The notes below the pieces were generated by a model, which did not search any database, was not told where the DNA came from, and saw only the letters and a list, made by a program, of their open reading frames with translations. 32,000 nt of DNA, from the NCBI RefSeq assembly GCF_000025685.1, contig NC_013967.1:2250001-2282000 (forward strand), written 5' to 3'. Origin of the DNA: Haloferax volcanii DS2 (GTDB lineage Archaea; Halobacteriota; Halobacteria; Halobacteriales; Haloferacaceae). Shown here in pieces: positions 2 to 23,428 of this stretch. A program made the position numbers and the translations under genes. How positions within the stretch are numbered: position 1 is the stretch's first letter; each line of letters opens with the position of its first letter.

Positions 2-673
2 ACCGGCTGTGACGCGCTCGACGACCTCCTCGACGGCGGGTTCGAACGCGGCACCGTCACGCAGGTGTACGGTCCCTCCGCGGCCGGCAAGACGAACGTC
101 GCGCTCTCGGCGGCGGTCCGGGTCGCCGCCGCGGGCGGCACCGTCGTCTACATCGACACCGAGGGCCTGTCGGTCGACCGCTTCCAACAGCTCGCGGAGG
201 CGGTCGCCCCCGAGGACGTGGAGTCTGTGACCTCGCGGCTGATGATAAGCGAGGCGTACGACTTCGAGGACCAAGAGCAGGCCGTCCGCGACGCCGAGGA
301 GTTCGCCGCCAGCGCCGACCTCATCGTCCTCGACTCCGCGACCGGGTTCTACCGGCTCGAACGGACCGCCGAGGGCGACGGCGGCGAGGCGCTGCGCCGG
401 GTGGCCCGGCAGGTCACCCACCTGCTGTCGCTCGCGCGCAAACACGACCTCGCGGTCGTCCTGACGAACCAGGTGTACGCCGACCCCGACTCCGACCGGA
501 CGCGCGCGCTCGGCGGCCACACCCTCGAACACTGGACGGGGACCGTCGTCCGCCTCGACCGCTTCCGCGGCGGCAACCGCCGGGCGACGCTGGAGAAACA
601 CCGCGCGAAACCCGCCGGAGAGACGGCGACGTTCAAGATAACCGACCGCGGGCTCTCCGCGACTGACGTGTAG
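2..673 (+). CDS. radB: DNA repair/recombination protein RadB (RecA/RadA paralog); 5' end truncated by the window edge
   Basis: The frame is open from nt 2 (TGCDALDDLLDGGFERGTVTQVYGPSAAGKTN...). Walker A is GPSAAGKT, followed by DTEG and a Walker B-like LIVLDS. It is a short RecA core with no visible N-terminal HhH domain, which fits RadB rather than RadA. Confidence 0.85.
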   Translation, partial: TGCDALDDLLDGGFERGTVTQVYGPSAAGKTNVALSAAVRVAAAGGTVVYIDTEGLSVDRFQQLAEAVAPEDVESVTSRLMISEAYDFEDQEQAVRDAEEFAASADLIVLDSATGFYRLERTAEGDGGEALRRVARQVTHLLSLARKHDLAVVLTNQVYADPDSDRTRALGGHTLEHWTGTVVRLDRFRGGNRRATLEKHRAKPAGETATFKITDRGLSATDV

Positions 674-786: not shown

Positions 787-1929
787 TTACAGCTCGTTGA
801 GCTTGCGGAGCAGCTGGCCGCGGTAGCGCTCGTCGGCCTCGAAGCCCTTGACTTCGAGCACGTTGCGTTCGAGCTTGTCGAGCGCGACGTGGAACGCGTG
901 TTCTGCGCCGTAACCCTCGCCGCTGCCCGCCAGTTGCCCGTGGCTCGTGCGGAGCCGAATCTGGCACTGGATGAGCGGCGTGCCGCGGAGCTTCTCTTTG
1001 TGCTCGTGGAAGCGGACGTGGGCGTGGAGCACGCTCATCCGCTGGTACTTGTCCGCGACCTCGGTGATAGCCGAGTTGATGTCGGCGCGGCTCAGCGTTT
1101 CGATGAGGCCGATGTTCGTGACCTGCACGTCCATCTGCTCTTCTTCGGTGTAGGTGAGCGCGCGGAGCACGTCGGTCTTCGTCACGACGCCGAGCACCTC
1201 GCCGTCGTCGTCGGCGGGCGTGACGACCAGCCCGGCGATGTCGTGTTCCAGCATGCGCGCGACCGCGTCGCGGACGCTCTCGTCGGGCGTCGCCGTGCGC
1301 GCCGGGCTGGTCATCAGGTCGTAGACCGGGAGGTCGAGCATCCGGTCGGTGTCGCCGCGGCGGTCCTGTTTGCCCTGCCGACCCTCGTCGCGCACCATGA
1401 ACTCGACGAGGTCGTAGGTGGTCAGGATACCTTCGAGGCGGCCCTCGTCGTTGACGACCGGCAGCCGCGAGACGCCGTGTTCGCGGAGGCGGTTGATGGC
1501 CTGCCCGAGGTGGTCGCGCTCGCCGACGGTGACCACGTCGTCGGTGTAAATCTGCTCGACGGTCAGCGCGTCGAGGTTGTCGAGCACGGCTTCGAGGATG
1601 GCGTCCTGCGTGATGATGCCGTACTGTTTTTCGCCCTCGTAGACCGGCGCGACCTTCGTGTCGCCCTCGACGAGCATGCGCGCGACCTCGCGCACGTTCT
1701 CGTGACGGTCTATCTTGGGGACGGCCTTCGTCAGCGCGGCCGCTTTGGTGTTGTCTTCGACGTGCGAGTTGATGAGCTGCTTCTCACCGATGACGCCCGC
1801 GTACTCGCCGTCGTCCTGAACGATGATGCCCTTAGGGTTTTCCCGCTCGAAGATGGAGCGGACTTTGCCTAATCGCTCGTTAACGTCGACCTCGATGAAA
1901 TCAGGAGTGGCGATATCAGCAATATCCAT
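787..1929 (-). CDS. Protein with four CBS domains (two Bateman modules) fused to a C-terminal HPF/RaiA-like (ribosome hibernation factor fold) domain
   Basis: 380-aa ORF with ATG at 1929. It carries four repeats of the CBS pattern (e.g. GIITQDAILEAV, GILTTYDLVEFM, GVVTKTDVLRAL). The C-terminal ~110 aa (MDVQVTNIGLIETLSRADINSAITEVADKYQRMS..VLHAHVRFHEH...IQCQIRLRTSHGQLAGSGEGYGAEHAFHVALDKLERNVLEVKG) aligns by eye with the beta-alpha-beta-beta-beta-alpha pattern of bacterial HPF/YfiA, including the A-x-D-K-L-E-R-x-L-x-K end. Confidence 0.85.
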   Translation of the reverse strand: MDIADIATPDFIEVDVNERLGKVRSIFERENPKGIIVQDDGEYAGVIGEKQLINSHVEDNTKAAALTKAVPKIDRHENVREVARMLVEGDTKVAPVYEGEKQYGIITQDAILEAVLDNLDALTVEQIYTDDVVTVGERDHLGQAINRLREHGVSRLPVVNDEGRLEGILTTYDLVEFMVRDEGRQGKQDRRGDTDRMLDLPVYDLMTSPARTATPDESVRDAVARMLEHDIAGLVVTPADDDGEVLGVVTKTDVLRALTYTEEEQMDVQVTNIGLIETLSRADINSAITEVADKYQRMSVLHAHVRFHEHKEKLRGTPLIQCQIRLRTSHGQLAGSGEGYGAEHAFHVALDKLERNVLEVKGFEADERYRGQLLRKLNEL

Positions 1930-2318: not shown

Positions 2319-4595
2319 ATGGCGTCTCCTGACAAGAACTCCCAAACTGACCGCCTCGATGGCGAAGAATCGTTCCGAGCAGACGGTGCCGGCACCGCCG
2401 AACTGGTCCCCACGACCGGGCCGGAGGCGATGGCCGCCCGCGCGAGTGAACTACCGGTCCCCGCGTCGGACCGCATCGAATACGGCCCCGTCGAAGACCT
2501 CGTCGACGACGAAGCGGCGGACGAAGACCGCCCGGAAACGCTCCGGGAGGCCGTCCTCCGCGAGGTGAAGGCGTTCTTCGCCGAAATCGACGACGAGACG
2601 GCGTTCGCGCCGACGCCCTCGGAGGCGTTCATCGAAGACCAGTTCTTCGACTTCTCGTTCCTCGAGGGCGTCGAGGCCGTCGAACACTACTGGGTGAACA
2701 AGCCCTTCGCGTTCGTCTCCATCCTGTACGACCACGAGAAGCGCGAACACCGGTACCACGTGAGCGAACCGCGTCTCGACGACTTCGAGGACTTCGTGCG
2801 CGACGACCTGACGAAGATTCTGCGCAACAGCCTCCTGTACCGCGACCTCGACGCCGACGGCGACCGCGAGGACGTGTTCGACGACGAGGCCCGCGAGATA
2901 ATCACCGAACACGCGGCGACGGTCGAAGACGGGTCGCTCTGGAAGCTGTTTTACTTCCTGCTTCGGGACTTCATCCACTTCGGCCGCATCGACCCCGTGA
3001 TGCGCGACCCCGGCATCGAAGACATCTCCTGTGACGGCGACGACGTGCCCGTCTACGTCTTCCACAGCGTCTACCGGGACGTGCCGACGAACGTCGTCTT
3101 CGACGACGGCGACCTCTCGTCGTTCACCATCCGCCTCGCGCAACGCGCGGGCAAGCAAGTGACCGTCTCCGACCCGCTCGTGGACGCGAGCCTCCCGGAC
3201 GGCTCCCGCGTCCAGTTGACTCTCGGCTCCGACGTGGCCACCCGCGGGTCGAACTTCACCATCCGGAAGTTCTCGGACGTGCCGCTGTCGCCGGTCGACC
3301 TCGTGCGCTGGAACACCTTCAGCGTCGAGCAGATGGCGTACTTCTGGCTCGCCATCGAGAACAACCGCTCGCTCATCTTCGCCGGCGGCACGGGCTCCGG
3401 GAAGACCACCTCGATGAACGCGGTGTCCTTTTTCGTCCCCGGCCACGCGAAGGTCGTCTCCATCGAGGACACCCGCGAAATCACCCTCCCGCACGACAAC
3501 TGGATTCAGTCTGTCACCCGCGACACGTTCACGGCGGACGGCCGCGGCGAGGTGTCGATGTACGCGCTCTTGCAGGCCGCGCTCCGACAGCGCCCCGAGT
3601 ACCTGCTGGTCGGTGAGATTCGCACGGAAGAGCGCGTCGCCCTGACGTTCTTCCACTCCATCGCCACGGGCCACACCGCGTACACGACGTTCCACGCCGA
3701 CTCCTCGGAGGGCGTGGTCCACCGCATGCGCAACGAACCCCTCGGCGTGCCCGCCCAGATGCTGTCGGACCTCGACATCATCTCGGTCCAAAAGCAGATT
3801 CACCTCGACGGCGACCGGACCCGCCGGAACATCGCCGTCACCGAAATCGCCGGCGTCCACGACGACGGCGAGGTCGAACTCCGCGACGTGTTCAAGCGCA
3901 ACCCCGAGAACGACGCTCACGAGCGCGTCGGTGACTCGGTCGTCCTCGACGAAATCGCCGCCGAGCGCGGCTGGACGAAAGCCGACCTCAAATACGAACT
4001 CGACGTTCGCGCCGACGTGCTCCGGTACATCGCCGCCTCGGCGCTCGACGACTACCTGACCGTCTCGGCCGTGATTCGCCGCTTCGAGCGCGACCGCGAA
4101 GGCCTCCTCGCGCGCGTCTACGCCGAGACCTCGCTAGTCTCCGTCGACGAAAACGGCGAGGCCGACGAGAGCGACGACCCCGTGGCGGGCGAAAACGACG
4201 CCGCGGCCGACGACTTCGACGACGAAATCGAGGTCTCGCCTGAGACCGAACGTCTGCTCGCGGACCTGTTCGACATCGAGTTAGACGACGACGCGGACGG
4301 CGACTCGGATGACGATGCCGACGACGATGAGGTGGCTGACGCCGCCGAGGCGGAGGCCGCCCCCGCCGCCGACGAAAGCGAAGCCGCCACCCCCGACGCC
4401 GCCGACGAATCCGATGACCCCGACGATGTCGGGACCGACTGGGAAGTCGTCGGTGACGACGCCGACGCCGGCGCAGACGACGCGGAAGCCGATTCCGCTG
4501 TCGCCGCGGACGCCTCGGACGCGTCGCCCGACGACCCCGACGACGCTGACGAGACCGTGACCGACGACGACCGGGAGGCCGACGATGCCCGCTGA
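2319..4595 (+). CDS. pilB: Type IV pilus / archaellum-family assembly ATPase (PilB/FlaI/VirB11 superfamily) with a long acidic C-terminal tail
   Basis: 758 aa. Walker A is FAGGTGSGKTTSMNA, the Asp box is VSIEDTREI, and the Walker B region is PEYLLVGEIRTEE, followed by the His box TGHTAYTTFHA. The stop overlaps the next gene's start by 11 nt. The last ~150 aa are almost entirely D/E/A. Confidence 0.9.
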   Translation: MASPDKNSQTDRLDGEESFRADGAGTAELVPTTGPEAMAARASELPVPASDRIEYGPVEDLVDDEAADEDRPETLREAVLREVKAFFAEIDDETAFAPTPSEAFIEDQFFDFSFLEGVEAVEHYWVNKPFAFVSILYDHEKREHRYHVSEPRLDDFEDFVRDDLTKILRNSLLYRDLDADGDREDVFDDEAREIITEHAATVEDGSLWKLFYFLLRDFIHFGRIDPVMRDPGIEDISCDGDDVPVYVFHSVYRDVPTNVVFDDGDLSSFTIRLAQRAGKQVTVSDPLVDASLPDGSRVQLTLGSDVATRGSNFTIRKFSDVPLSPVDLVRWNTFSVEQMAYFWLAIENNRSLIFAGGTGSGKTTSMNAVSFFVPGHAKVVSIEDTREITLPHDNWIQSVTRDTFTADGRGEVSMYALLQAALRQRPEYLLVGEIRTEERVALTFFHSIATGHTAYTTFHADSSEGVVHRMRNEPLGVPAQMLSDLDIISVQKQIHLDGDRTRRNIAVTEIAGVHDDGEVELRDVFKRNPENDAHERVGDSVVLDEIAAERGWTKADLKYELDVRADVLRYIAASALDDYLTVSAVIRRFERDREGLLARVYAETSLVSVDENGEADESDDPVAGENDAAADDFDDEIEVSPETERLLADLFDIELDDDADGDSDDDADDDEVADAAEAEAAPAADESEAATPDAADESDDPDDVGTDWEVVGDDADAGADDAEADSAVAADASDASPDDPDDADETVTDDDREADDAR

Positions 4596-6711
4596 CTCGT
4601 CGACTTCGGTCCCCCTGCCCGACTACGAGGTCGAGCAGTACTTCCCGCGCGAACACTTCGACGAGTCGCCCGAGGAGGTCGAACGACTGCGCCAGCGCTA
4701 CGGCTACGTCCGCACGTACTTCAAGCGCCACCCGGCGGGCCACCGCGACCTCCAGCGCTGGCTGAACCAGACCCGCGTGGGCACGACCTACGACCTGTAT
4801 CTCACCCAGTCGATGAAGCTGGCGCTCGTCACCGCGGCGTTCGGCTCGCTCGTCGGCCTCGCGCTCACGTTCGTCCTCGCCCGCACGGGCGTGCTGGCGA
4901 ACGCGTCGAGCCCCGTGAGCCTCGGCGTCGCGACGGGGTACGTCGCCCCGCTTGCCCCCTACAAGGTTCCCATCCTCGGCGCGGCCCTCGTCGCCCTCGT
5001 CGGCGGGTTGGCGGCCGCCGGGACCTACTACGCTCGGTACTACCTCCCCAAGAGCCGCGCCGAGATGCGCGGCCGCAGCATCGACATCCTGCTCCCGCAC
5101 GCCATCGTCTACATGTACGCGCTCAGCCACGGCGGGATGAGCTTCCTCGAAGTCATCCGCTCCGTCGCCGACGCGCCCGACTACGGCGAGGTGTCCCGCG
5201 AGTTCGAGATGATCGCCCGCGACATGGACCTGTTCGGTAACGACCTGTTCACGGCGCTCCGCAACTCGCGGAACCTGACGCCCTCGATTAACTTCGAGCA
5301 GTTCCTCGACGACCTGCTTTCGGTCCTCGACTCTGGCGGCGACGTGACCGCCTTCCTCGACCGCGAGTCCGCGACGTACCTCGAAGAGGCCCGCGACGAA
5401 CAGGAGGACTTCATCGAGACGCTGTCGATGCTCTCGGAGGTGTTCGTCGCCGCGTTCGTCGCCGCGCCGCTCCTGCTCATCGTCACGCTGATGGTCATCA
5501 GCTTCCTCGGCGGCGACACGCTCGTCCAGCTGTACGCGCTGAACTACCTCATCTTCCCGCTGGGGATGGGGCTGTTCCTGCTCCTCGTGGACGTGCTCTC
5601 CTCGCCGTACACGCAGGACACGGTCCGGACGAAACACGACGTGACCGTCCTCGAAGAGCTTCGGACGGTCGCGGTCGACTTCCTCGGCGCGATGCGCCGC
5701 GAAGTCCAGCGCGCCCGCGAGGCCCGCTGGGGCGGTGACGGCGTCGCCTCCGACGGCGGCTTCGTCGACGAGCGACTCGACGACTACCGCCGGGAAAACG
5801 CGGTGTACGAGCTTCGGACGCTCGTCGGCGACCCGCTCGACATCATGCGCCGCCAGCCGTACCTCTCGGCGGTCGCCACGGTTCCCCTCGCGCTCCTGTC
5901 GGTCGTCGGCGTCCTCGTGCTCGGCCTCGCGACGCCGACGCTCGACGCCATGCTCGCGAACCCGTACAACACGACGGTCTGGTTCGTCGTCCTCCCGTTC
6001 GCCATCGTCGCGGTCCCCCTGACGGTGTTCCACGAGCTTCGGACCCGCCGCGAGCGCACGCTCGAACGGCGCTTCCCCGACACGCTGAACCTGCTGTCGA
6101 GCGCCAACCAGATGGGTATCTCGCTGGTCGAGTCGCTCGCGCTCGTCTCCCGCTGGTCGACCGGCGCGCTCGCGGACGAACTCCGCGCGCTCCGCAACGA
6201 CATCCGCTGGAACCACGACGCCCACGCGGCGCTCATGGCGTTCGCCACCCGGCTCAACGTCCCGCAGCTCTCGCGGGTCATCCGGCTCATCGCCAGCGGC
6301 GGCCGCACCAGCGGCGACCTCTCGCGCGTCCTCAGCGTCGCCGCGGAGGACACCCGCAACCGCTACAAACTGGAGAAGTCCCGCCGTCGCGCGATGGGCT
6401 CGTACATCGCCATCGTCGTCATCGGGTACTTCGTCTACCTGTTCGTCATCCTGATGATCGGCGCGAGCTACCTCGGCCCCCTCGCCGAGATGTCCGTGCC
6501 CACGACGGCGTCGAACGGACAGTCGCTCCCCATCGGCATCTCGTCGGTGCCGCTGACGAACTTCCACGTGGTGTTCTTCCACTCCGCGCTGATTCAGGCG
6601 GTCGGCAGCGGGCTCCTCGCCGGCAAACTGGCCGACAACAGCGCCCTCAGCGGGCTGAAGTACGCCCTCGGACTGTCCGCGCTGGCGCTCGTCGCCTTCG
6701 CACTGGTGTAA
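4585..6711 (+). CDS. pilC: Type IV pilus platform membrane protein (PilC/FlaJ/TadC, duplicated T2SS-F-like domains)
   Basis: 708-aa polytopic membrane protein with two cytoplasmic helical modules each followed by TM clusters. The ATG at 4585 overlaps the pilB stop. This ATPase-platform pairing is canonical for archaeal type IV filament loci. Confidence 0.85.
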   Translation: MPADSSTSVPLPDYEVEQYFPREHFDESPEEVERLRQRYGYVRTYFKRHPAGHRDLQRWLNQTRVGTTYDLYLTQSMKLALVTAAFGSLVGLALTFVLARTGVLANASSPVSLGVATGYVAPLAPYKVPILGAALVALVGGLAAAGTYYARYYLPKSRAEMRGRSIDILLPHAIVYMYALSHGGMSFLEVIRSVADAPDYGEVSREFEMIARDMDLFGNDLFTALRNSRNLTPSINFEQFLDDLLSVLDSGGDVTAFLDRESATYLEEARDEQEDFIETLSMLSEVFVAAFVAAPLLLIVTLMVISFLGGDTLVQLYALNYLIFPLGMGLFLLLVDVLSSPYTQDTVRTKHDVTVLEELRTVAVDFLGAMRREVQRAREARWGGDGVASDGGFVDERLDDYRRENAVYELRTLVGDPLDIMRRQPYLSAVATVPLALLSVVGVLVLGLATPTLDAMLANPYNTTVWFVVLPFAIVAVPLTVFHELRTRRERTLERRFPDTLNLLSSANQMGISLVESLALVSRWSTGALADELRALRNDIRWNHDAHAALMAFATRLNVPQLSRVIRLIASGGRTSGDLSRVLSVAAEDTRNRYKLEKSRRRAMGSYIAIVVIGYFVYLFVILMIGASYLGPLAEMSVPTTASNGQSLPIGISSVPLTNFHVVFFHSALIQAVGSGLLAGKLADNSALSGLKYALGLSALALVAFALV

Positions 6712-6715
6712 GGCC

Positions 6716-8887
6716 ATGACTCACAACACTTCCCCCAAACACACGAAATCGCCCCGCAGGCACGCACTGTGCGGGTTCGTCGCGGGCGCGGCCCGCCGCG
6801 GCTCGCACCTCCGCGGTGACCGCCGCGGAGCCTCGGCCATCCTCGGCACGATGCTCGCGTTCGCGCTCGTCGTCTCGCTCGTCGCGATGGTGCAGGTCTC
6901 GGCGGTCCCCGCGTGGAACCAACAGACCGAGTTCGAACACCTCACGGCCGCCGAGACCGACTTCGCCGCGTTCGACGAGAGCGTCTCGAAGGCGGTCGAC
7001 GGCCGGCAGACCCGCGCGACCCTCGACGCCGGCGTCGACTACCCGACCCGCGCGCTGTTCGTCTCGCCCGCCGCCGGCTCCGGCAGTCTGCGGACGACCG
7101 ACCCCGCGACGGCCCGCATCTCCGGCGCGGTCGCGACCGGCGAGACCGGCACCTACTGGGACGGCTCCGAACACGCGTTCGACACCCAGCAGTTCGTCTA
7201 CCGACCCGACTACCGGTACCTCCAGAGCGAACCCTCGCTCGTCCACGAGGGGACCGCGCAGTACACCGCCTACGCAGGTAGCGAGGTCGGCGCGACCCAG
7301 TCGCTCGTCGACGGCACCAAGGTGTCGCTCGTCTTCCTCGAAGGCGACATCGACACCGCGACGAGCGAGGCGACCACCTTCGGCGTCGTCCCCCTGAGCG
7401 CCGGCACCGACTACATCACCGTCACCGACGCGGGCGCGCCCATCACCATCTCGGTCCCCACCCGGCTCTCCGAAGACGCGTGGCGCGACCTGCTGGCCGA
7501 CGAACCCAACGTCCGCTCTATCGCCTACGCGACCGGCACCGATTCCAACACCCTGACGGTCGAACTCGAACCCGGCAAGACCTACGACCTGCGGCTCTCG
7601 CGGGTCGGCATCGACACCCCCGGCGCGCTCCAAGCGCCCGCCTACATCGTCGACGTCGAGGGCGACAACGCCGTCGTCCCGCCGGGTGCGAGCCACCGGG
7701 CCGTCGTCGAGGTCCGCGACGCGCAGAACAACCCCGTCCCCAACGCGGTCGTCACGGCCAGCCCCGGCCTGACCGCCGAAAGCGGGCGCATCGTCGCACG
7801 TGACACCGGCACCGTCTCGACCGTCACCGATTCGGACGGCCGCGCGACGTTCGTCTACACCGCGACCGGAAGCGTCGACGGCGTCGTCAACGACGCGTTC
7901 GACGTGGTCGTCGAGGACGCCGCGGGCGCGACCGTCGACCGCGTGACCTTCGACGTACAGCTCCGCGAGGGCGGCGTCACCGACCCGCTCCGCGGGCTCG
8001 TGGCCGCCGTCGACGACCCCGGATTCGTCTACGCCGATGTCGGCGGAAACGGCGAGTTCGACGGCGCTGACTACCGCGTCAACGACACCGGCACGGGCGG
8101 CGACGTGACATACGACGCCGGAACCGACCGGATCGTCGTCCCGCCGAGCACCGGGACCATCGTCTCCGACCGCGACATCACCTTCGCGGGCGACGGAGTC
8201 TCGCTCCACGTCGACACCGTCGCCACCGGCTCGAACAGCCGAATCGACATCGACGCCGGAAGCGGCTCGCTGGCCGCGGTCGGCGTGAGCGTCACCTCGG
8301 TGTCGGGCCAGGACATCACCGTAGTTGCGGGCGACGAAATCGACCTTTCCGGCGCGTCGGTCACGCAGGGAAGCAAAGCCAGCCTCTCCATCGAGGCCGG
8401 CGGCGACATCGACCTCGACAACGCCGGGGTGACGGTCGCACAGGACAGCAACAGCCTCCGTATCGTCTCGACGAACGGCTTCGTCAGCGCCCGGAGCGCC
8501 GACATCAGCGGGAAGGGCGACATCCGAATCGACGGCACGGACGGCGTCGACCTCGCCGGGGCCGGCCTCTCGGGGGTCAAGGACAACGACGCGCTCGACG
8601 TCGTCTCCGCGCGCGGCGGGGTCAATCTCAACGGCGTGGTCATGCTCGGCGACGGCGACATCGTCGTCGACGCCGAGGGCAACGTCTTCGTCGTCGGCGC
8701 GAACATCGCCTCGACCAAGACGGACGTGGTGATAACCTCCGACGGCGGGATGGTCAGCGGCCGCGAGGCCGCCATCTCAGCCGAGGACGACGTGGTCATC
8801 ACCGCGGCGGTCCGCATCTACCTGCCCGACTCCTCTATCGAAGACGAGGACACGCCAGAACTGAACGCGCCCGAAGTGGAGGTCTGA
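6716..8887 (+). CDS. Giant pilin-like protein 1: class III (prepilin-like) N-terminus, conserved N-module, Ig-like domain, and C-terminal beta-helix-like repeats
   Basis: 723 aa, starting 4 nt after the pilC stop. The N-terminus ..GDRRG|ASAILGTMLAFALVVSLVAMVQV matches the archaeal prepilin pattern (basic residue-Gly, small residue, hydrophobic helix). An Ig-like segment (VVEVRDAQNNPVPNAVVTA...TDSDGRATFVYTA) lies at ~7688-7963. About nine 22-24 aa repeats lie at ~8173-8835. Confidence 0.75.
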   Translation: MTHNTSPKHTKSPRRHALCGFVAGAARRGSHLRGDRRGASAILGTMLAFALVVSLVAMVQVSAVPAWNQQTEFEHLTAAETDFAAFDESVSKAVDGRQTRATLDAGVDYPTRALFVSPAAGSGSLRTTDPATARISGAVATGETGTYWDGSEHAFDTQQFVYRPDYRYLQSEPSLVHEGTAQYTAYAGSEVGATQSLVDGTKVSLVFLEGDIDTATSEATTFGVVPLSAGTDYITVTDAGAPITISVPTRLSEDAWRDLLADEPNVRSIAYATGTDSNTLTVELEPGKTYDLRLSRVGIDTPGALQAPAYIVDVEGDNAVVPPGASHRAVVEVRDAQNNPVPNAVVTASPGLTAESGRIVARDTGTVSTVTDSDGRATFVYTATGSVDGVVNDAFDVVVEDAAGATVDRVTFDVQLREGGVTDPLRGLVAAVDDPGFVYADVGGNGEFDGADYRVNDTGTGGDVTYDAGTDRIVVPPSTGTIVSDRDITFAGDGVSLHVDTVATGSNSRIDIDAGSGSLAAVGVSVTSVSGQDITVVAGDEIDLSGASVTQGSKASLSIEAGGDIDLDNAGVTVAQDSNSLRIVSTNGFVSARSADISGKGDIRIDGTDGVDLAGAGLSGVKDNDALDVVSARGGVNLNGVVMLGDGDIVVDAEGNVFVVGANIASTKTDVVITSDGGMVSGREAAISAEDDVVITAAVRIYLPDSSIEDEDTPELNAPEVEV

Positions 8888-8890
8888 GCC

Positions 8891-10621
8891 ATGTCTCGCC
8901 TCTCTCTCGACTCCCGCGGCGTCTCGGAAATCCTCGGGTTAGTATTCGCGTTCGGGCTGGTCGTGTCGGTCATCGCGGTGGTCCAACTCGCGGGCACCCC
9001 CGTCTGGACCGCCGGCGACGAAGCCGACCACAGCGCCAGCGTCTCGGCCGACCTCGCGTCGCTCGACTCGCAGGTGTTCCGCGCCTCCGGCGTCGAGGCC
9101 GGCAGCCGCGTCGCGGTCGACTCGGACGTGTCGTACCCCGAGCGGTATCTCGTGGTCTCGCCGCCCGACAGCGTCGGGACGTTCCGGGTCGACGGCGCGG
9201 ACGCCGTGACGGTCACGGGCGTCTCCGCGGTCGGTCCCGAAGCGGTGTTCTGGGACGGCACGACCCGCACCTACGAGACCGGAGCCATCGTCTACGAGGC
9301 CGACTACGCCGAGCGCGACGAGGCGCGGATGGTGCTCGAAAGCGGCGTCTCGTACCTCGAAACCGACGGGACCCCCGTCGTCCACCGCCAGTCGCTCGTC
9401 CGCGGCACGACCGTCACGCTCGTGTTCTTCGAGGGCGACCTCGACGGCCACACGACTGCCGGCGACACCGTGGCGCTCGCTCCCGTCTCCGTGCGCTCCG
9501 AGTCGCTGCCGGTGTACAGCGCCACCGGCCCGGTGCGCATCTCGGTGCCGACCTACCTCTCGGAGGACGCGTGGGTCGACCTCATGGCCGAGGAACCCCA
9601 CGCGCGAGTCGTCTCCCACGTCGCCAGCGGCGACCACGCGGTCGTCACTATCGAACTCGACGCGGGCGTCCGCTACGACTTCCGCGTCGCCCGTCTCGGC
9701 GTCGGCGAGGCCGTCGAACCCGACCCCGCCGCCTACGCGGTCGCGGTCGAAGGCGAGGACGCCGCGGTCCCCTCGGGCGGCCGCGAGACGCTCGTCGTCC
9801 GCGCGTTCGACCGCTACGGCGCGCCCGCCGCGGGCGCGACGCTGACCGTCAGCCCGTCGACCCCGCTCGGCGGCACCGTCGCCCCGACCGCCGGGGCGAC
9901 CGCCGTCACCGACGAGTCCGGCCGCGCGAGCTTCACGTACACCGCGCCCGACGACGTGACCGAAATCGAAGGCGACACCGTCACCGTCACCCTCGACGGG
10001 GCGTCCGGCCCCGGCGCGACGGTCACCATCCCGCTGGAAGTCCGCGGGATGGGCGAGAGCTACGAGGTCCGAAACACCACCGCGTCGACGCCGGAGCCCG
10101 AAGACGACTTCGACATCGACGACGGCGAGGTCGTCCCGTCGGACGCCTTCACGGGCGATTTCGAACTGCTCGGCAGCGCCATCACGGACGGGCGGGGTCC
10201 CGTTCCCGTCTCCGTCACCTTCGTCGTCGACGGCGAGCAGCACCACTCCGCGGACTGGGACGACGTGAACGACCGCCGGTCGCACTCGTTCAGCGTGGCT
10301 GGCGACGCCGGTGACTCGCTCGCCATCATCGCCGCCACCGACGGCTACGTCACCGCCGACTCGTCGGTCGACCACCGACAGGTCGCGGTCCTCCGCGACG
10401 GCGACCGGGTCCCGAGGATACGGGGCTACAACGGACAGGACGACGCCGCCGAGTTCGTCGCACCCTACATCAGCGACGGCGGGAAGACGATGGAACTCGA
10501 CAGCAACCAGGCCATCTTCCTGTTCGAACTCGGAACGACCGACACGCACAGTCCCGCGTTCGATATGCAGGACGTGGTCATCCTCGTGACCCTCTGGGAG
10601 GACGGGGAGGGAGGCGACTGA
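8891..10621 (+). CDS. Giant pilin-like protein 2: a paralog of the upstream gene with a different C-terminal domain
   Basis: 576 aa, starting 3 nt after the previous stop. The N-terminus MSRLSLDSRG|VSEILGLVFAFGLVVSVIAVVQL looks like a short class III signal peptide. It shares blocks with protein 1 (SVPTYLSEDAWVDLMAEEP vs SVPTRLSEDAWRDLLADEP; TDESGRASFTYTA vs TDSDGRATFVYTA). The C-terminal ~190 aa are unrelated to protein 1. Confidence 0.75.
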   Translation: MSRLSLDSRGVSEILGLVFAFGLVVSVIAVVQLAGTPVWTAGDEADHSASVSADLASLDSQVFRASGVEAGSRVAVDSDVSYPERYLVVSPPDSVGTFRVDGADAVTVTGVSAVGPEAVFWDGTTRTYETGAIVYEADYAERDEARMVLESGVSYLETDGTPVVHRQSLVRGTTVTLVFFEGDLDGHTTAGDTVALAPVSVRSESLPVYSATGPVRISVPTYLSEDAWVDLMAEEPHARVVSHVASGDHAVVTIELDAGVRYDFRVARLGVGEAVEPDPAAYAVAVEGEDAAVPSGGRETLVVRAFDRYGAPAAGATLTVSPSTPLGGTVAPTAGATAVTDESGRASFTYTAPDDVTEIEGDTVTVTLDGASGPGATVTIPLEVRGMGESYEVRNTTASTPEPEDDFDIDDGEVVPSDAFTGDFELLGSAITDGRGPVPVSVTFVVDGEQHHSADWDDVNDRRSHSFSVAGDAGDSLAIIAATDGYVTADSSVDHRQVAVLRDGDRVPRIRGYNGQDDAAEFVAPYISDGGKTMELDSNQAIFLFELGTTDTHSPAFDMQDVVILVTLWEDGEGGD

Positions 10622-11990: not shown

Positions 11991-12941
11991 TCAGCTCTCC
12001 GTTTCGTTATGGATGGGTGTCTCGGTCGGCGGTGCTGTCTCCGTGTCGTCGTCAGTGGTCGTCGTCTCCGCATCGTCGTCAGTGGTCGTTGGTTCCTCCG
12101 TCGTCGGTTCCTCACCGATAGTCACGACTGCGTCATCGGTGACGGGCGTGCCGTTGACCGTGTACGGGCCGTCTTCAGTTCCGTTGGAGGTGAGGAAGTC
12201 GAGCGTCTGGTTGTCGTTGGTGTCGAGATGCGCCTGCGCCGTGAGGTTCACGCTCTCGTTCTCGCTCAGCGGTTCGAGGAGCGGCACGGTAACGTTCTCC
12301 TGTGGGCCGGAGTCGAGGTAGTCGGTCGCGCCGACGACCGAGCCATTCTCGTCGAGGATGGCGATGTAGCCACCGTCGGAGAGGTTCGCGCTCGTGACGG
12401 TCACGTTACTGCCGTCGGACTCCTGGTCGTCGAACTGGAGCGTCGCGGTCGGCTCGTCGGGTTCGGGCTCGGGCTGTTCGCCCACGGTGAGCGTCGCCAA
12501 CTCGCCGAAGTCGCGCGTCTCGATACCGTGGATGTACGTCCCGTCTTCGAGGTCCGTCGTGTTGACGTCGAACTCGATGGTCTCGGTCTCGTTGGGGTTC
12601 AGCGCCCAGCCGGTCCGTTCGACCACGTCACCTTCGAGTCGGAACTCGACGCACTGAATCATCGGCACGTCGTTCGGATTGGTGATATCGGCCGACACCG
12701 TCACCGGCTCACTGGCTTCGACGCCGGACGGCGCGGAGAGATTGCTCACCCCGAACGACTCATACGTACCGTTGCTCGGATACGTGCAGTACTGTGTCTG
12801 CGTCTGCGTCTGTGTCTGTGTCTGCGTCTGTTCTTGTACCTGTGCCTGCTGTGTATCGACCGCCGCCAGACCGGTCCCCGACGCCGCCGCGACGAGGGCG
12901 ACGACGACGAGGACGCCGGCGATACGTGTTCGTGTGCTCAT
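11991..12941 (-). CDS. Secreted, heavily N-glycosylation-sequon-rich cell-surface protein with a (TQ)n linker and Thr/Asp/Glu-rich C-terminus
   Basis: The start is taken at the ATG at 12941 (MSTRTRIAGVLVVVALVAAASGTGLAAVD), giving a Sec-type signal peptide. This is followed by QTQTQTQTQTQTQ, two beta-rich domains (the second containing NLSDGGYIAILDENGSVVG, a motif seen in halophile surface proteins), at least 12 N-x-S/T sequons, and the tail TTEEPTTTDDDAETTTTDDDTE. No C-terminal membrane anchor is visible. Confidence 0.7.
   Translation of the reverse strand: MSTRTRIAGVLVVVALVAAASGTGLAAVDTQQAQVQEQTQTQTQTQTQTQYCTYPSNGTYESFGVSNLSAPSGVEASEPVTVSADITNPNDVPMIQCVEFRLEGDVVERTGWALNPNETETIEFDVNTTDLEDGTYIHGIETRDFGELATLTVGEQPEPEPDEPTATLQFDDQESDGSNVTVTSANLSDGGYIAILDENGSVVGATDYLDSGPQENVTVPLLEPLSENESVNLTAQAHLDTNDNQTLDFLTSNGTEDGPYTVNGTPVTDDAVVTIGEEPTTEEPTTTDDDAETTTTDDDTETAPPTETPIHNETES
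12792..12830 (-). repeat. Imperfect hexanucleotide coding microsatellite (CTGYGT)n on the + strand, equal to (ACR-CAG)n or (Thr-Gln)n on the coding strand
   Basis: The sequence reads ctgtgtctgcgtctgcgtctgtgtctgtgtctgcgtctg. That is 6.5 units, in frame within the glycoprotein gene. Confidence 0.8.
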
Positions 12942-13440
12942 GTGTCTGCGATGACAATCTACCGACGCCGCCGGCAAAAGCTGACGAGATAGTTTCAATA
13001 GTTTCGCGCGTTGGCTGTCAACTTACCTGACGGTGTAGACGGTTAGTCCGCCTCTGATTCCGATACTGGTGGCCTCTCGACCGATTTTTCCGCAACAGTT
13101 CACGAAACACGATGTTTCACGCGAGACGCTACGCGTTAACTGTCAGAAAATCGAGTTTGTCGCCAATGCTAACGGGGTAGCTTCTCGTTTATTCGAACGT
13201 TCTGACAGTTTGAGTGACGCGGCCGACTGAGCGTTTCGAAACCGGGACGGTGTCGAATCGCTGGCTGTCTCTGAACTACTCGGGAGCTCAAGGGGTGACT
13301 TCTCATACGGGTACCGATTGTCCAGTTACGTTGAGTAGTGAGAACCGTAGATACAGTTGGCGTTACATTCGTGGTCGAATTCGAGACATCACATACATTA
13401 TATCCAAAACTTCTTGTACCAGTACCGTATTGGGCTGTGT

Positions 13441-13590
13441 ATGAGCGAATCCACCGAGAATTCGCGGATTGCACCGTACACGGAGTACTCGCGCACCCGT
13501 TCGCGGTGTCCCCGATGCGGGACCTCGGTCCCGAAGGAGGCGGTCGGCGACGCGCTGTGTGCGAGCTGCAAGACGGACGTCTCCATCTGA
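13441..13590 (+). CDS. Small CPxCG-type zinc-ribbon protein (49 aa)
   Basis: MSESTENSRIAPYTEYSRTRSRCPRCGTSVPKEAVGDALCASCKTDVSI carries CPRCG...CASC, a C4 zinc ribbon. A TTATAT motif sits ~40 nt upstream. The stop TGA overlaps the next ATG (TGATG). Confidence 0.6.
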   Translation: MSESTENSRIAPYTEYSRTRSRCPRCGTSVPKEAVGDALCASCKTDVSI

Positions 13591-13778
13591 TGAGCACGGC
13601 CGCACCTCACAGTTCCGACGAATTGGCGGATGCGCCCGTGTTCGACCTCGAATGCATCTACGACGACCCGGAGAACCCGACCGAACTGACCGTGTTCTCC
13701 CCGAAATCGGAGGAGTTGACCACGTCGTGGATTACGGTTGACCGCGGCAGCGCCGTCTCACTGGACGATATCGCGTAG
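13590..13778 (+). CDS. Small acidic protein (62 aa) translationally coupled to the zinc-ribbon gene
   Basis: The sequence is MSTAAPHSSDELADAPVFDLECIYDDPENPTELTVFSPKSEELTTSWITVDRGSAVSLDDIA. It has haloarchaeal acidic composition and high GC3. Its ATG shares the A of the upstream TGA. The motif pattern (ELTVF...TSWITVD...AVSLDD) resembles a small protein family recurrent in haloarchaea; this is from memory, not verified. Confidence 0.6.
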   Translation: MSTAAPHSSDELADAPVFDLECIYDDPENPTELTVFSPKSEELTTSWITVDRGSAVSLDDIA

Positions 13779-13796
13779 GCGCTCGGCTGGCGACGG

Positions 13797-13807
13797 TTTT
13801 GTTTTTT
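13797..13807 (+). terminator. Oligo-T tracts (TTTTgTTTTTT) downstream of the small-gene pair
   Basis: cggTTTTgTTTTTTgatt lies 19 nt after the stop at 13778. Confidence 0.4.
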
Positions 13808-13856
13808 GATTAACTGACGACGACCAGTTTCGGCTCCGTGAACGCGCTGTCACTTA

Positions 13857-13899
13857 TCGTTTCGAGAACTCAGAACGTGGGTTGGGGCGGATTCGAACC
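13857..13899 (-). repeat. Degenerate direct copy of the tRNA-Val 3' end plus its downstream flank (att-like remnant / tRNA fragment)
   Basis: 13877-13899 (gtgggttggggcggattcgaacc) is identical to 14000-14022, which covers the T-loop, the 3' half of the T-stem, the 3' acceptor strand and the first flanking base. The preceding 20 nt match 14/20. The offset is exactly 123 nt. No 5' acceptor strand (GGGTTGG) is present, so it is not a functional tRNA. Confidence 0.7.
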
Positions 13900-14000
13900 T
13901 CGGTCGCTCACTCCGTTCGCTCCCTGCTTCGAATCCGCCGTCACCACTTTCGGTACCACGGACTCCTCGCTGTCGCTCGTCGTTGCGAGGTACCAGAAAG

Positions 14001-14075
14001 TGGGTTGGGGCGGATTCGAACCGCCGGCCTGCTCCGTGTGAAGGAGCCGTCATAACCTGGCTAGACCACCAACCC
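14001..14075 (-). tRNA. tRNA-Val (anticodon CAC)
   Basis: The reverse complement is GGGTTGGTGGTCTAGCCAGGTTATGACGGCTCCTTCACACGGAGCAGGCCGGCGGTTCGAATCCGCCCCAACCCA. The acceptor stem GGGTTGG/CCAACCC has 7 bp. The anticodon stem GCTCC/GGAGC encloses loop TTCACAC (anticodon CAC). The T-arm is GGCGG-TTCGAAT-CCGCC and the discriminator is A. CCA is not encoded. Confidence 0.93.
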
Positions 14076-15590: not shown

Positions 15591-15615
15591 TGGCTTGTAT
15601 CTATTTCACATAGTG

Positions 15616-16722
15616 ATGAACACGAACGCAGATTCGTCCGACCCCAAACTCTCTCGGCGGTCGGTCGTCGCGGCCGGTTCCGGTCTGTTGACGGCCGGTC
15701 TCGCGGGCTGTCTCGGCAGCGGTGGCGGCGCGGGAAGCGGAAGCGACGGCTCGAACACCGACTCGAACGACGCCTACGGCGGGTCCGAGTCCGAAGACGG
15801 CCCTGTCGTGGTCGCCTCGTTCTTCAGCTTCTACGACTTCGCGCGCGAGGTCGCGGCCGACACGCCAGTCACGCTCAAGAACCTCATCCCGACGGGACTC
15901 CACGGCCACGGCTGGGAACCGGACGCGAGCGTCACGCGCGACATCATCGAGGCCGACGCGTTCGTCCACGTCGGGAAGGACTTCCAGCCGTGGGCCGACC
16001 GCGCCATCCAGACGCTGAAAGACGACGACGTGGACACTCAACTCATCAACGTCCGCGAGGGCGTCGAACTCGTGGAACTCGCGGCGAGTCTCGACCGCGA
16101 CGAGGAGGGCGTCGGTGAGGGTCGCGGGAAGGACCCCCACTTCTGGCTCGACCCGCGGCGCGCCAAGACCGCCGTCGACAACATCACCGAGGGGCTGGTC
16201 GAACTCGCCCCCGCGTACGAGGAGACGTTCCGCGACAACGCCGACGCGTACAAAACCGACGTACTCGACCGCATCGACCGGGACTACCAGGACATCTTCG
16301 ACTGGGCGTCGCGCAAGGTCGTCCAGTTGGCGGCCCACAACGCCTTCCAGTACATCGGCGTCCGCTACGGCGTCGAGATGCGCCCGCTCGTCGCCAACCT
16401 CGCCGCCAGCGGCGACGTGAAGCCCTCGGACATCACCGAGGCGAAGCGCGTCATCGAGGACAACGACATCCGGTACATCGGCGCGGGCGTCTTCGAGACG
16501 CGCCGCCCGGCGAAACAGCTCATCGCCGAGACCCCCGTCGAGGCGTACTTCCCCGTCACCCCGTACGCGGGCGTCCGCGAGGACTGGGTCGCAAACGACT
16601 GGGGCTACGAGGAAATCGCCGACAACATCAACATGCCGACGTTCGAGGTCGTCCTCGGCAACAAGTCGCCCGAGGAGGTCGGCGGCGACGGCTGGGCCGA
16701 CGAGTGGAGGAACTTCGAATGA
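15616..16722 (+). CDS. znuA: Zinc/metal ABC transporter substrate-binding lipoprotein (ZnuA/TroA family)
   Basis: The N-terminus MNTNADSSDPKLSRRSVVAAGSGLLTAGLAGC combines a twin-Arg motif with the lipobox LAGC. The conserved motif DPHFWLDP is present, along with an acidic Asp/Glu-rich loop (LDRDEEGVGEGRGKD). It is followed by ABC ATPase and permease genes. Confidence 0.85.
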   Translation: MNTNADSSDPKLSRRSVVAAGSGLLTAGLAGCLGSGGGAGSGSDGSNTDSNDAYGGSESEDGPVVVASFFSFYDFAREVAADTPVTLKNLIPTGLHGHGWEPDASVTRDIIEADAFVHVGKDFQPWADRAIQTLKDDDVDTQLINVREGVELVELAASLDRDEEGVGEGRGKDPHFWLDPRRAKTAVDNITEGLVELAPAYEETFRDNADAYKTDVLDRIDRDYQDIFDWASRKVVQLAAHNAFQYIGVRYGVEMRPLVANLAASGDVKPSDITEAKRVIEDNDIRYIGAGVFETRRPAKQLIAETPVEAYFPVTPYAGVREDWVANDWGYEEIADNINMPTFEVVLGNKSPEEVGGDGWADEWRNFE

Positions 16723-17588
16723 GCGCCCTCCGCAACGGCGAATCCGCGGAGTCTGCCGAGTCCACCGACGCCGGCGTCTCCGACGACGCGAGCCGAGACG
16801 CCGGCGGCTCGTCCGACCCCCTCGTCGAACTCGCAGACGTCGAGTTCGGCTACACCGCGACGCCCGTCGTGGAAGACATCTCGCTCCGCATCGACCCCGG
16901 CGAGTACGTCGCCATCGTCGGGCCGAACGGGTCGGGCAAATCGACGCTGATGAAGCTCATCCTCGGCCTGCTCCGGCCCGACGAGGGGGCCGCGCGGCTG
17001 TTCGGCGAGCCCGCCCACGCCTTCGACGACGGCGCGCGCATCGGCTACGTCGCCCAGCACGCCAGCGCCTCCAAGGAGATGCCCATCACCGTCCGCGAGG
17101 TCGTGAAGATGGGTCGGTTCCCCCACGTCGGCTTCGGCCGGCTCTCGGCCGAAGACCACCGCATCGTCGACGAGGCGCTCGCCACGGTCGGGATGTCCGA
17201 CTTCGCGGACCGCCGGGTGACGAAGCTCTCGGGCGGCCAGCGCCAGCGCGCCTTCATCGCCCGCGCGCTCGCCGGCGAGGCCGACCTGCTCGTCTTGGAC
17301 GAGCCGACCGTCGGCGTCGACGCCGAGTCGGTCGACGCCTTCTACGACCTGCTCGAATCACTCAACGAGGAGGGCATCACGATTCTCCTCATCGAACACG
17401 ACCTCGGCGCAGTCACCGACCACGCCCGGCGCGTCGTCTGTCTCAACCGCGAGGTCTACTTCGACGGCCCGACCGACGAGTTCGTCGACAGCGACGCGCT
17501 CGCGCGGGCGTTCGGGACGGCGGCCTCCTTCGCGGGCGGTTCGGGCAGTTCGAGCGGTACAGGCGGTTCGGGCGGTGGTCGCCCGTGA
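16719..17588 (+). CDS. znuC: Zinc/metal ABC transporter ATP-binding protein
   Basis: Walker A is GPNGSGKST, the signature is LSGGQRQR, and Walker B is LLVLDEPT. The ATG at 16719 overlaps the znuA stop (ATGA). Confidence 0.9.
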   Translation: MSALRNGESAESAESTDAGVSDDASRDAGGSSDPLVELADVEFGYTATPVVEDISLRIDPGEYVAIVGPNGSGKSTLMKLILGLLRPDEGAARLFGEPAHAFDDGARIGYVAQHASASKEMPITVREVVKMGRFPHVGFGRLSAEDHRIVDEALATVGMSDFADRRVTKLSGGQRQRAFIARALAGEADLLVLDEPTVGVDAESVDAFYDLLESLNEEGITILLIEHDLGAVTDHARRVVCLNREVYFDGPTDEFVDSDALARAFGTAASFAGGSGSSSGTGGSGGGRP

Positions 17589-18583
17589 TACCCGTCGAAC
17601 TGGTCGCCGCGTTGCAGGCGGGGCCGTTAGACGCTGCCCTCGCGCCTCTCTACTGGCTTCTCGCGCTGTGGTCCGACCTGCTTTTCGCCGTCGGCGACGC
17701 GACCGGCCTCGGCTTCCTCGACTACCGGTTCATGCACCGCGCCATCCTCGTCGGCCTCTGTATCGGCGTGATGGCCCCCCTCATCGGGACGTTCCTCGTC
17801 CACAGACAGCTCGCGCTCATCGGCGACGCGCTCGCCCACACCGCCTTCGCCGGGGTCGCCGTCGGCCTCTTTCTCAACGGCGTGTTCAGCCTCGGCGTCT
17901 CGCCGTACCTGACCGCCGTCGTCGTCGCCGTCATCGCGGCGCTCCTCATCGAACTCATCTCGGAGGCGACCGACGCCTACAACGACGTGTCGATGGCTAT
18001 CGTGCTCTCGACGGGGTTCGCGCTGGGGACCGTCCTCATCAGCCTCAACGCGGGCGGCCTCGCGGTCGGCATCAACCAGTACCTCTTCGGCAACCTCTCG
18101 ACCGTCTCGGCGGAGAACGCCGCCATCCTGCTCGTGCTGTTCGCCGTCATCGTCGGCACCGTCGCGCTCACGCGCAACCAACTGCTCTACGTGACGTTCG
18201 ACGAGACGGCCGCCGCCGTCTCGGGTATCTCGGTCACGTGGTACAACCGCGTGATGGTCATGCTGACCGCGCTGGTCGTCGTCGGCGCGATGCAAATCAT
18301 GGGCGTCATCCTCGTCGCCGCCATGCTCGTCGTCCCCGTCGCGGGCGCGGCGCAGGTCTCCCGAAGCTTCTCCGAGTCGCTTCTCGTCTCCGTCGTGCTG
18401 GCCGAACTCGCCGTGCTCCTCGGCATCGGCGCGTCCTACTACGGCGAGGCAACCGCCGGCGGCGTCATCGTCCTCGTCGCGGTCGGCATCTACGTCGTCG
18501 CCGTCGCCATCGGCAAGGTACAGGCGCGCGCCGGAGCGGACGCGACCCCCGAACTGGGGAGCATCGACTCCCGCGAGGCGTAG
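17585..18583 (+). CDS. znuB: Zinc/metal ABC transporter permease (ABC-3 family)
   Basis: 332-aa polytopic protein with family motifs FMHRAILVGLCIGVMAPLIGTFLVHRQLALIGDALAHTAFAGVA. The GTG at 17585 overlaps the znuC stop (GTGA). Confidence 0.88.
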   Translation: MIPVELVAALQAGPLDAALAPLYWLLALWSDLLFAVGDATGLGFLDYRFMHRAILVGLCIGVMAPLIGTFLVHRQLALIGDALAHTAFAGVAVGLFLNGVFSLGVSPYLTAVVVAVIAALLIELISEATDAYNDVSMAIVLSTGFALGTVLISLNAGGLAVGINQYLFGNLSTVSAENAAILLVLFAVIVGTVALTRNQLLYVTFDETAAAVSGISVTWYNRVMVMLTALVVVGAMQIMGVILVAAMLVVPVAGAAQVSRSFSESLLVSVVLAELAVLLGIGASYYGEATAGGVIVLVAVGIYVVAVAIGKVQARAGADATPELGSIDSREA

Positions 18584-21722: not shown

Positions 21723-21723
21723 C

Positions 21724-22104
21724 TCACTCCGTCTGCTCGCGGTACTCCTCGGGAGAGAGGAGGTCGTCGAACTCGCTCGTGTCGGCCGGTTCGACTGCGA
21801 GCATCCAGCCGTCGCCGTAGGGGTCGTCGTTGAGGAGTTCCGGGGCGTCGAACAGTTCCTCGTTGACGGCCGTGACCGTGCCCGAGATGGGGGCGTAGAG
21901 GTCCGAGACGGCCTTGATGCTCTCGACCACGCCGAACTCCTCGCCGGCGGCGAGTTCGTCGCCCTCGGCGGGGAGTTCGACGAAGACGACGTCGCCCAGT
22001 TCGTCCTGCGCGAAGTCGGAGATGCCGATTTTGACGGCGTCGCCCTCGGTGGTGGTCCATTCGTGCGATTCCAGGTACTTCCGGTCGTCAGGGATTTCGA
22101 ACAT
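21724..22104 (-). CDS. gcvH: Glycine cleavage system H protein (lipoyl carrier)
   Basis: It begins [18 protein letters not shown] and carries the lipoyl-lysine motif [13 protein letters not shown]. It is 126 aa from the ATG at 22104. The long upstream extension in the track overlaps gcvT in another frame. Confidence 0.92.
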
Positions 22105-22106
22105 TG

Positions 22107-23198: not shown

Positions 23199-23428
23199 AC
23201 ACGCCCCTGCGAACTGCGATAAGTAATGCTTTGGTATCTGTTCGCTCGGTCTGTTCAGTATCTTGTATGAATACGGGGGACGAATCGGGGTAAAACACCA
23301 CGAATCCGCAACCACATGGCGAAATCTGCCGTCCGAGCGCGGCGCTGATCGGGACCGCGGTGGACGTGATAAACCGATTAGTGCGATACCGAATTCGGCG
23401 CGCTGCGCGTGCGTCGGGGGATAGTTCG

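Follow-up and report, generated by a model that had tools for sequence, protein, structure and literature searches.

The window, the whole 32,000-nucleotide stretch of DNA that was analysed, contains on its minus strand a gene for a 380-residue protein in which four CBS domains are followed by a C-terminal domain predicted to have the HPF/RaiA fold. The gene is almost certainly that of HVO_2384 (AHA), a member of the HibA family, or of an orthologue indistinguishable from it; the assignment rests on the mass, the pI, the positions of two lysines and the synteny. We are highly confident that the protein as a whole is best explained as an AHA/HibA hibernation factor working by the published mechanism. 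It is not new, having already been described in 2025–2026 with ribosome structures and knockouts. A coupling of nucleotide sensing to a ribosome-binding module, which an earlier sequence-only reading of the window had proposed, is reported for the family by three independent studies, one of them on HVO_2384.

The gene and its product

The coding sequence (787..1929, minus strand) begins with ATG and comprises 380 codons and a stop codon. The ORF, its coding-type GC3, the full-length matches to PDB entries and the values published for HVO_2384 all point to it as the gene of AHA/HibA. With GC3 at 0.89 and GC2 at 0.35, the ORF has the composition expected of a genuine gene in haloarchaeal DNA, and the GC content of the DNA around it is 67%. 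These boundaries, as well as the location of the internal residue M266 at nt 1134, had been given exactly in the sequence-only reading. An antisense ORF that overlaps the gene (889..1872, plus strand) fails the codon-position GC test and was rejected as an artefact of GC-rich DNA. Rfam gave no match close to the gene, and a scan of its surroundings for sigma-70 promoters and intrinsic terminators, which is inapplicable to archaea, gave none above shuffled expectation.

The mass computed for the 380-residue protein is 42,520.3 Da and the computed pI is 4.87, with lysines at positions 311 and 313. The values for HVO_2384 (UniProt D4GWN2) are 42,521 Da and 4.87, and both K311 and K313 of that protein are reported to be acetylated (mBio 2025). 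Among the nine other Haloferax orthologues (92–98% identical), none matches both the mass and the pI. Two PDB chains match over the full length: 9l96_a (406 aa, E 2.2e-69) and 9sr9_H, the P. abyssi HibA (392 aa, E 1.9e-48, residues 3–377). The identity is 97–98% to the proteins of H. denitrificans, H. chudinovii, H. massiliensis, H. prahovense, H. marisrubri and H. gibbonsii and 66–77% to those of other Haloferacales. Many homologues bear the JGI name ‘CBS domain-containing protein/ribosome-associated translation inhibitor RaiA’.

The neighbouring gene (65..673, plus strand) encodes a Rad51/RecA-family protein, consistent with radB, which we take to be HVO_2383. It lies tail-to-tail with the gene in the window, and radB does so in 73 of the 80 Haloferacales loci returned by the genome search, all of which come from one order and none from H. 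volcanii itself. The gene order is common to 16 Haloferax loci. Together with the 97–98% identity to proteins of other Haloferax species, the radB neighbour is consistent with HVO_2384 and with a place of the window in Haloferax.

The CBS tetrad and the HPF/RaiA-like domain

The full protein was modelled with AlphaFold2 from 45 orthologues (mean pLDDT 78.8). Pfam CBS matches four stretches of the 380 residues (E 5.3e-43), the best of which is 202–258. The ribose motif of CBS domains is G-h-h-T-x-x-D. CBS1 (1765..1929, minus strand; approximately residues 1–55) and CBS2 (1567..1752, minus strand; approximately residues 60–121) have approximate boundaries, taken from the Pfam match together with the AlphaFold2 secondary structure for CBS1 and the AlphaFold2 model for CBS2. 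On inspection of its sequence, CBS1 is without the ribose motif and reads GVIGEKQL. The CBS3 core (1399..1566, minus strand; approximately residues 122–177), placed by the Pfam and NCBIfam stretches and the AlphaFold2 model, carries the motif G167-I-L-T-T-Y-D173, in which G167, T170, T171 and D173 are invariant among 45 orthologues. CBS4 (1150..1329, minus strand; approximately residues 201–260), placed by Pfam CBS, carries G247-V-V-T-K-T-D253, with G247 and T250–D253 invariant in the same comparison. As judged from the sequence, the presence of invariant ribose motifs in CBS3 (167–173) and CBS4 (247–253) and the absence of one in CBS1 agree with nucleotides that would bind at the CBS3/CBS4 interface.

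When the full-length model was used in Foldseek, the tetrad matched SriA/B/D, AMPK gamma, Dri and MJ1225 (E 3e-22 to 1e-17). This search returned CBS proteins only; HPF matches appeared once the C-terminal domain was modelled alone. The sequence-only reading had described the first ~265 residues as two Bateman modules with four CBS repeats, a description borne out by the Pfam match, the AlphaFold2 model and the Foldseek matches to CBS tetrads.

Between CBS3 and CBS4 lies an extended loop of CBS3, ‘loop 3’ (1330..1398, minus strand; approximately residues 178–200, MVRDEGRQGKQDRRGDTDRMLDL), delimited from the AlphaFold2 model and from conservation. In the model of the full protein, the pLDDT is below 50 at residues 180–190. 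R180, Q185, G186, D189, R190, G192, D193 and R196–P201 are invariant among 45 orthologues. A loop of low pLDDT that is nevertheless largely invariant fits the pattern of a ribosome-contacting segment that would be disordered off the ribosome. Loop 3 aligns with the loop of P. abyssi HibA, and the equivalent CBS3 loop enters the peptidyl transferase centre both in HVO_2384 (Souza et al.) and in P. abyssi HibA (Madru et al., PMC13324472). This extended and highly conserved loop was absent from the sequence-only reading. The CBS tetrad is more than a sensor in the published structures; it itself binds the 50S subunit, and one of its loops enters the peptidyl transferase centre.

The HPF/RaiA-like domain (790..1134, minus strand; residues 266–380) was assigned from AlphaFold2, Foldseek and PF02482. 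In the AlphaFold2 model it consists of β1 (268–271), α1 (281–292), β2 (300–314), β3 (317–328), β4 (331–340) and α2 (342–379). The C-terminal 119 residues, when modelled alone, gave a pLDDT of 85.5 with the order of the elements unchanged from the full model. When this domain was compared with the PDB in Foldseek, the top 32 matches were all HPF, RaiA/YfiA/protein Y, plastid pY/PSRP1, mycobacterial MPY or RafH (E 5.8e-6 to 3.3e-3; target-normalised TM 0.28–0.74, mostly 0.5–0.74). Structures of dsRBDs follow from rank 33, with E 4e-3 or worse, query-normalised TM 0.28–0.43 and large rmsd. Most of the top 32 matches derive from ribosome complexes.

The similarity in sequence to known families is below threshold. 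PF02482 (Ribosomal_S30AE) matches residues 284–361, scoring 20.5 bits when the entire protein is searched and 21.8 bits (E 3e-4) with the C-terminal part, both below the curated cut-off of 23.7 bits, and NCBIfam TIGR00741 (HPF/YfiA) scores 13.8 bits against a cut-off of 40.9 bits. The PF02482 match is more than chance, because 19 of 19 orthologous C-terminal domains match this family at E ≤0.01, the best at 3.5e-5. A profile of 21 C-terminal domains, compared with the sequences of the PDB, reached bacterial RaiA/YfiA at E ~0.5 only, a value not significant alone. In hhalign, the alignment to E. coli RaiA and HPF covered β3-β4-α2 only, with probabilities of 59% for RaiA and 16% for HPF; as the profile was too shallow (Neff ~2) to decide, we relied upon the comparison of folds. 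The models thus support an HPF/RaiA fold for the C-terminal domain.

This fold had been proposed by eye, with a structure search named as the check by which a different fold might come to light; the top 32 PDB matches are all hibernation factors, and the outcome favoured the proposal. All three strands picked out by eye, and the last helix too, coincide with β2, β3, β4 and α2 of the AlphaFold models, and the helix, at 342–379, is about twice as long as had been thought. The N-terminal motif string holds for its first six positions, M266-x-V-x-V-T271, and breaks down further along, where L275, E277 and R281 stand in the places for which the string has [IV], [IV] and L.

The tip of the β2-β3 hairpin (973..1008, minus strand; H308–L319, HEHKEKLRGTPL), assigned from conservation and alignment, bears K311 and K313. 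H308, H310 and K311–L319 are invariant among 45 orthologues, and E309 is present in at least 90% of them. Residues 313–319 (KLRGTPL) align without gaps with the insertion 324-KFRGVHL-330 of P. abyssi HibA, and residues 274–276 (GLI) align, also without gaps, with 283-SAL-285; both archaeal-specific insertions are thus found in the window protein. In P. abyssi, the insertion 324-KFRGVHL-330 contacts uS12 close to the decoding bases (Madru et al., PMC13324472). Among the hallmarks of AHA/HibA, four tandem CBS domains, an HPF-like fold, homology to a characterised member, a long CBS3 loop and the archaeal insertions are present.

Ribosome binding, regulation and other readings

HVO_2384 was seen on the Hfx. 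volcanii 70S ribosome by cryoEM of lysates and named AHA (Souza et al., bioRxiv, February 2026). [quoted passage not shown] 2026). The CBS tetrad is located on the 50S subunit at H69–H71, H80, H89–H93 and uL16, loop 3 of CBS3 reaches into the peptidyl transferase centre, and the CBS3/CBS4 junction contains two AMP molecules. In the same study, the knockout strain showed delayed regrowth from stationary phase, formed ~4.4-fold fewer colonies and was outcompeted; 32 ribosomal proteins were depleted. The abundance of AHA was constant across growth phases (Souza et al. 2026). The family was named HibA in P. abyssi by Madru et al. (bioRxiv, October 2025; Nat Commun, April 2026, PMC13324472), where the protein adopts three ribosome-bound conformations. 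HibA prefers AMP to ATP (Kd of 12 μM versus 113 μM), inhibits in vitro translation and is found in 47% of archaeal genomes; its deletion in T. barophilus has a phenotype. For HibA, neither AMP nor ATP made a clear difference to ribosome binding or to the distribution of conformers (PMC13324472). [quoted passage not shown]

The mechanism that we favour is the one demonstrated in the literature for AHA and its P. abyssi homologue. There, the C-terminal HPF-like domain sits in the mRNA/tRNA channel of the 30S subunit over the A and P sites, the place taken by bacterial HPF/RaiA. The four-CBS disc binds the 50S subunit over the A and P tRNA positions, and its long CBS3 loop is pushed into the peptidyl transferase centre. 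Intact 70S ribosomes are thereby locked in an inactive, nuclease-protected state; without the factor, stationary-phase cells become depleted of ribosomal proteins and regrow slowly.

AMP rather than ATP at CBS3/CBS4 may tune the affinity for the ribosome, possibly by stabilising loop 3; hibernation would then follow the energy charge and not the abundance of the protein. Such an affinity switch is unproven, and equilibrium experiments with HibA speak in part against it (PMC13324472). The abundance of AHA is constant, whereas hibernation is specific to growth phase, and control layers beyond AMP/ATP might reconcile the two. We consider it rather unlikely that these layers are acetylation of the hairpin and sequestration by partners. 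Were it so, acetylation of K311/K313, linked to the GNAT Pat2, could weaken binding to the 30S subunit, and RadA/RadB or other partners could sequester free AHA. Pat2 co-purifies with HVO_2384. The conserved tail-to-tail pairing of radB and aha would in that case reflect a functional link of recombinational repair with translational shutdown.

The protein could instead serve chiefly to regulate, or to partner, the machinery of DNA recombination and replication (the RadA/RadB, GINS/CMG network), with ribosome binding as a secondary or storage state. Pull-downs link the P. abyssi homologue Pab0961 to RadB and replication proteins, HVO_2384 is said in a cited personal communication to interact with RadA and RadB in vivo, sequestration by RadB or replication partners was raised by the HibA authors (PMC13324472), and the tail-to-tail arrangement recurs in 73 of 80 loci. 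The interaction data, however, are pull-downs or unpublished; the convergent genes radB and aha are not co-transcribed, and with all 80 loci from one order the shared radB order may be inherited. In the structures, the occupation of the functional centres of the ribosome is stoichiometric and specific, and the knockouts show ribosome loss and impaired recovery. We therefore regard a primary role in recombination or replication as very improbable; a RadA/RadB role is possible as an extra layer rather than as an alternative.

Two further readings start from annotation. The C-terminal domain might be another α/β nucleic-acid-binding fold (dsRBD-like) or a transcription-regulator module, the protein then being a CBS-regulated transcription factor like HhpR. 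Some JGI names, ‘predicted transcriptional regulator’, suggest this, and the NCBIfam HhpR model matches at E 2.5e-14, but through the CBS part only and with 53 bits, far under its cut-off of 520. The dsRBD structures, the first of which is at rank 33 of the fold search, stand behind 32 of the HPF family with the poorer values given above, Pfam finds no DNA-binding domain in the 380-residue protein and homologues have been seen on ribosomes in published structures; we attach almost no probability to this assignment. The IMPDH and GuaB1 models, matched through their CBS inserts, and the depositors’ molecule name for 9sr9_H, ‘Dehydrogenase’, would suit a generic CBS metabolic regulator or a protein related to IMP dehydrogenase. 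Against this, the IMPDH/GuaB1-type scores are far below the cut-offs (for example, 47 versus 481 bits) and confined to the CBS region, Pfam finds no catalytic domain and the 9sr9 entry is the complex of P. abyssi HibA with the ribosome, so that a metabolic enzyme or regulator is extremely unlikely. The transcription-factor and dehydrogenase readings were both set aside as annotation artefacts of the CBS part.

Relatives of the AHA/HibA factor

As an AHA/HibA hibernation factor, the window protein would represent an HPF-type hibernation module common to Bacteria and Archaea that is here fused to an AMPK-gamma-like energy sensor plugging the peptidyl transferase centre. The finding adds nothing to what was known, but it does show that a genuine architecture, and one far from obvious, was picked out by eye from the sequence. 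The residual interest is in regulation, that is, in nucleotides, in the acetylation of K311/K313 with Pat2 and in the RadA/RadB partners.

Searching 1.84 billion cluster representatives with a C-terminal-domain profile retrieved 124 clusters at E ≤1e-3. The representatives of 52 clusters have at least 330 aa, and in 51 of these 52 the domain is located at the C-terminus; tandem CBS repeats are present in all eight long representatives tested. The 58 clusters below 200 aa are fragments or stand-alone HPF-like proteins. A yield of 124 clusters from a shallow haloarchaeal profile is too few to include the bacterial HPF family and agrees with the two well-separated sequence clusters described by Souza et al. 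(2026).

The closest known system is AHA (HVO_2384). The two are alike in length class, mass, pI, K311/K313, the radB neighbour and the Haloferax genome context, as well as in the architecture of four CBS domains and an HPF domain, the extended CBS3 loop and the long terminal helix; no difference was detected. The HibA proteins of P. abyssi and T. barophilus (PMC13324472; PDB 9SR9 series) are full-length homologues with both archaeal-specific insertions, but in the C-terminal domain P. abyssi HibA has only ~29% identity to the window protein. HibA has been described in three conformations (PTC, uL5 and L1 stalk), each module binding one nucleotide, whereas the classes of Hfx. volcanii AHA are with and without E-site tRNA and contain two AMP. 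The best solved match, 9l96_a (also 9l98, 9l9c and 9l9v; ‘CBS domain-containing protein’), shares the two-part architecture and ~45% identity in the C-terminal domain; its CBS3 loop region is more extended, and the chain as a whole exceeds the window protein by 26 residues. It may be a paralogue, or else the orthologue of a different haloarchaeon. No relevant paper came up in a literature search for 9L96, 9L98, 9L9C and 9L9V, and 9sr9 and 9l96 were absent among the Foldseek matches listed, from a library of entries released up to April 2026.

The other relatives each resemble one module of the protein. Bacterial and plastid HPF/RaiA proteins (YfiA, protein Y, PSRP1, MPY and RafH; PF02482) share the fold and topology of the C-terminal domain and, according to published structures, the 30S site, but the similarity in sequence is sub-threshold. 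The archaeal domain differs from bacterial HPF in its extended β2-β3 hairpin and much longer α2. Compared to long HPF, the window protein is without the dimerisation domain and has the N-terminal, 50S-binding CBS tetrad instead. Dri of Pyrobaculum calidifontis (PDB 9E6Q/9E7F) and SriA-D/ARC-A/P of Methanosarcina and Methanolobus (9ZNF–9ZNI) are likewise hibernation factors built of CBS tetrads (Foldseek E 3e-22 to 7e-17), but they are without an HPF domain and are related to the N-terminal module alone. A loop of Dri likewise enters the PTC; Dri has two tetrads, and its binding to the 50S subunit is rotated by ~180°. Sri/ARC proteins are stand-alone tetrads that lie in tandem on the small subunit. 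The AMPK gamma subunit of eukaryotes is built as the same disc of four CBS domains and has sites for adenine nucleotides at CBS3/CBS4 (Foldseek E ~1e-18, target-normalised TM ~0.65); with ~18% identity and no HPF domain, it regulates a kinase and not the ribosome.

Genes surrounding the AHA gene

The AHA gene (787..1929, minus strand), which encodes the 380-residue CBS-HPF-like protein, lies tail-to-tail with a Rad51/RecA-family gene consistent with radB (65..673, plus strand), with 113 nt between the two stop codons. The N-terminus of the radB-like gene is probably cut off at the window edge. The convergent arrangement, with radB downstream of the AHA gene, occurs in 73 of the 80 Haloferacales loci. 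Interaction of Pab0961 (the Pyrococcus abyssi homologue) and HVO_2384, most likely the product of this very gene, with RadB and RadA has been described from pull-downs and a personal communication; neither of the two hibernation papers (AHA, HibA) mentions radB.

On the other side, an operon-like run (2319..10621, plus strand) diverges from the AHA gene. It encodes a PilB3-like T2SSE ATPase of 758 aa, whose C-terminal tail is long, acidic and rich in Asp, Glu and Ala. The PilC/T2SSF membrane protein (708 aa) is encoded by a gene whose start overlaps the stop of the preceding one, and the run also includes the genes for two large DUF7289/Big_1 proteins, of 723 and 576 aa. Among the 80 loci, the run is retained beside the AHA gene in the 16 Haloferax loci only.

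Remaining genes of the window

GC content reaches its minimum (0.594) at 12001-14000, as compared to about 0.67-0.70 elsewhere. The low-GC stretch (11991..14075) contains the gene for a DUF7282 protein (11991..12998, minus strand) and ends with a tRNA-Val(CAC) gene (14000..14075, minus strand); the stretch could represent a short piece of integrated or foreign DNA adjoining the tRNA. At 26649..30555 (minus strand), two genes that overlap at their ends encode DabA (810 aa; Pfam E 1e-266) and a DabB-like protein (Proton_antipo_M, 494 aa). The pair is a putative system for taking up inorganic carbon, here in a haloarchaeon that lives heterotrophically. The metal-uptake operon (ZnuA, ABC ATPase, and ABC-3 permease; 15595..18583, plus strand) and the glycine-cleavage genes (P-protein subunit and T-protein; 20379..23315, minus strand) are ordinary housekeeping context.

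Related proteins and the hairpin tip

P0140, a cluster representative matched by the C-terminal-domain profile, is a single ORF of 381 aa in which a CBS repeat (58-112) is followed by an HPF-like domain (123-227) and, at 204-358, by an IPP transferase domain of the MiaA type. The probable explanation is that a truncated AHA gene was joined to its neighbour through a gene-calling or assembly error; a real CBS-HPF-IPP transferase fusion is a possible alternative.

The best solved-structure match of the AHA protein is 9l96_a (E 2e-69; approximately 45% identity in the HPF domain), an acidic, haloarchaeal-looking CBS-HPF protein of 406 aa with four entries (9l96, 9l98, 9l9c, and 9l9v). A literature search found no citing paper for these entries; the chain may be the product of a fourth independent study or a member of a paralogous subfamily.

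In HVO_2384, K311 and K313 are reported to be acetylated, and an inactive Pat2 acetyltransferase co-purifies with the protein. Both lysines are located in the tip of the β2-β3 hairpin (residues 308-319; 973..1008, minus strand), where all positions are invariant but E309, conserved at a level of at least 90% (orthologue alignment, n = 45). The tip aligns with the insertion of P. abyssi HibA, which binds uS12 and the decoding centre. Acetylation of K311 and K313 may accordingly affect 30S binding.
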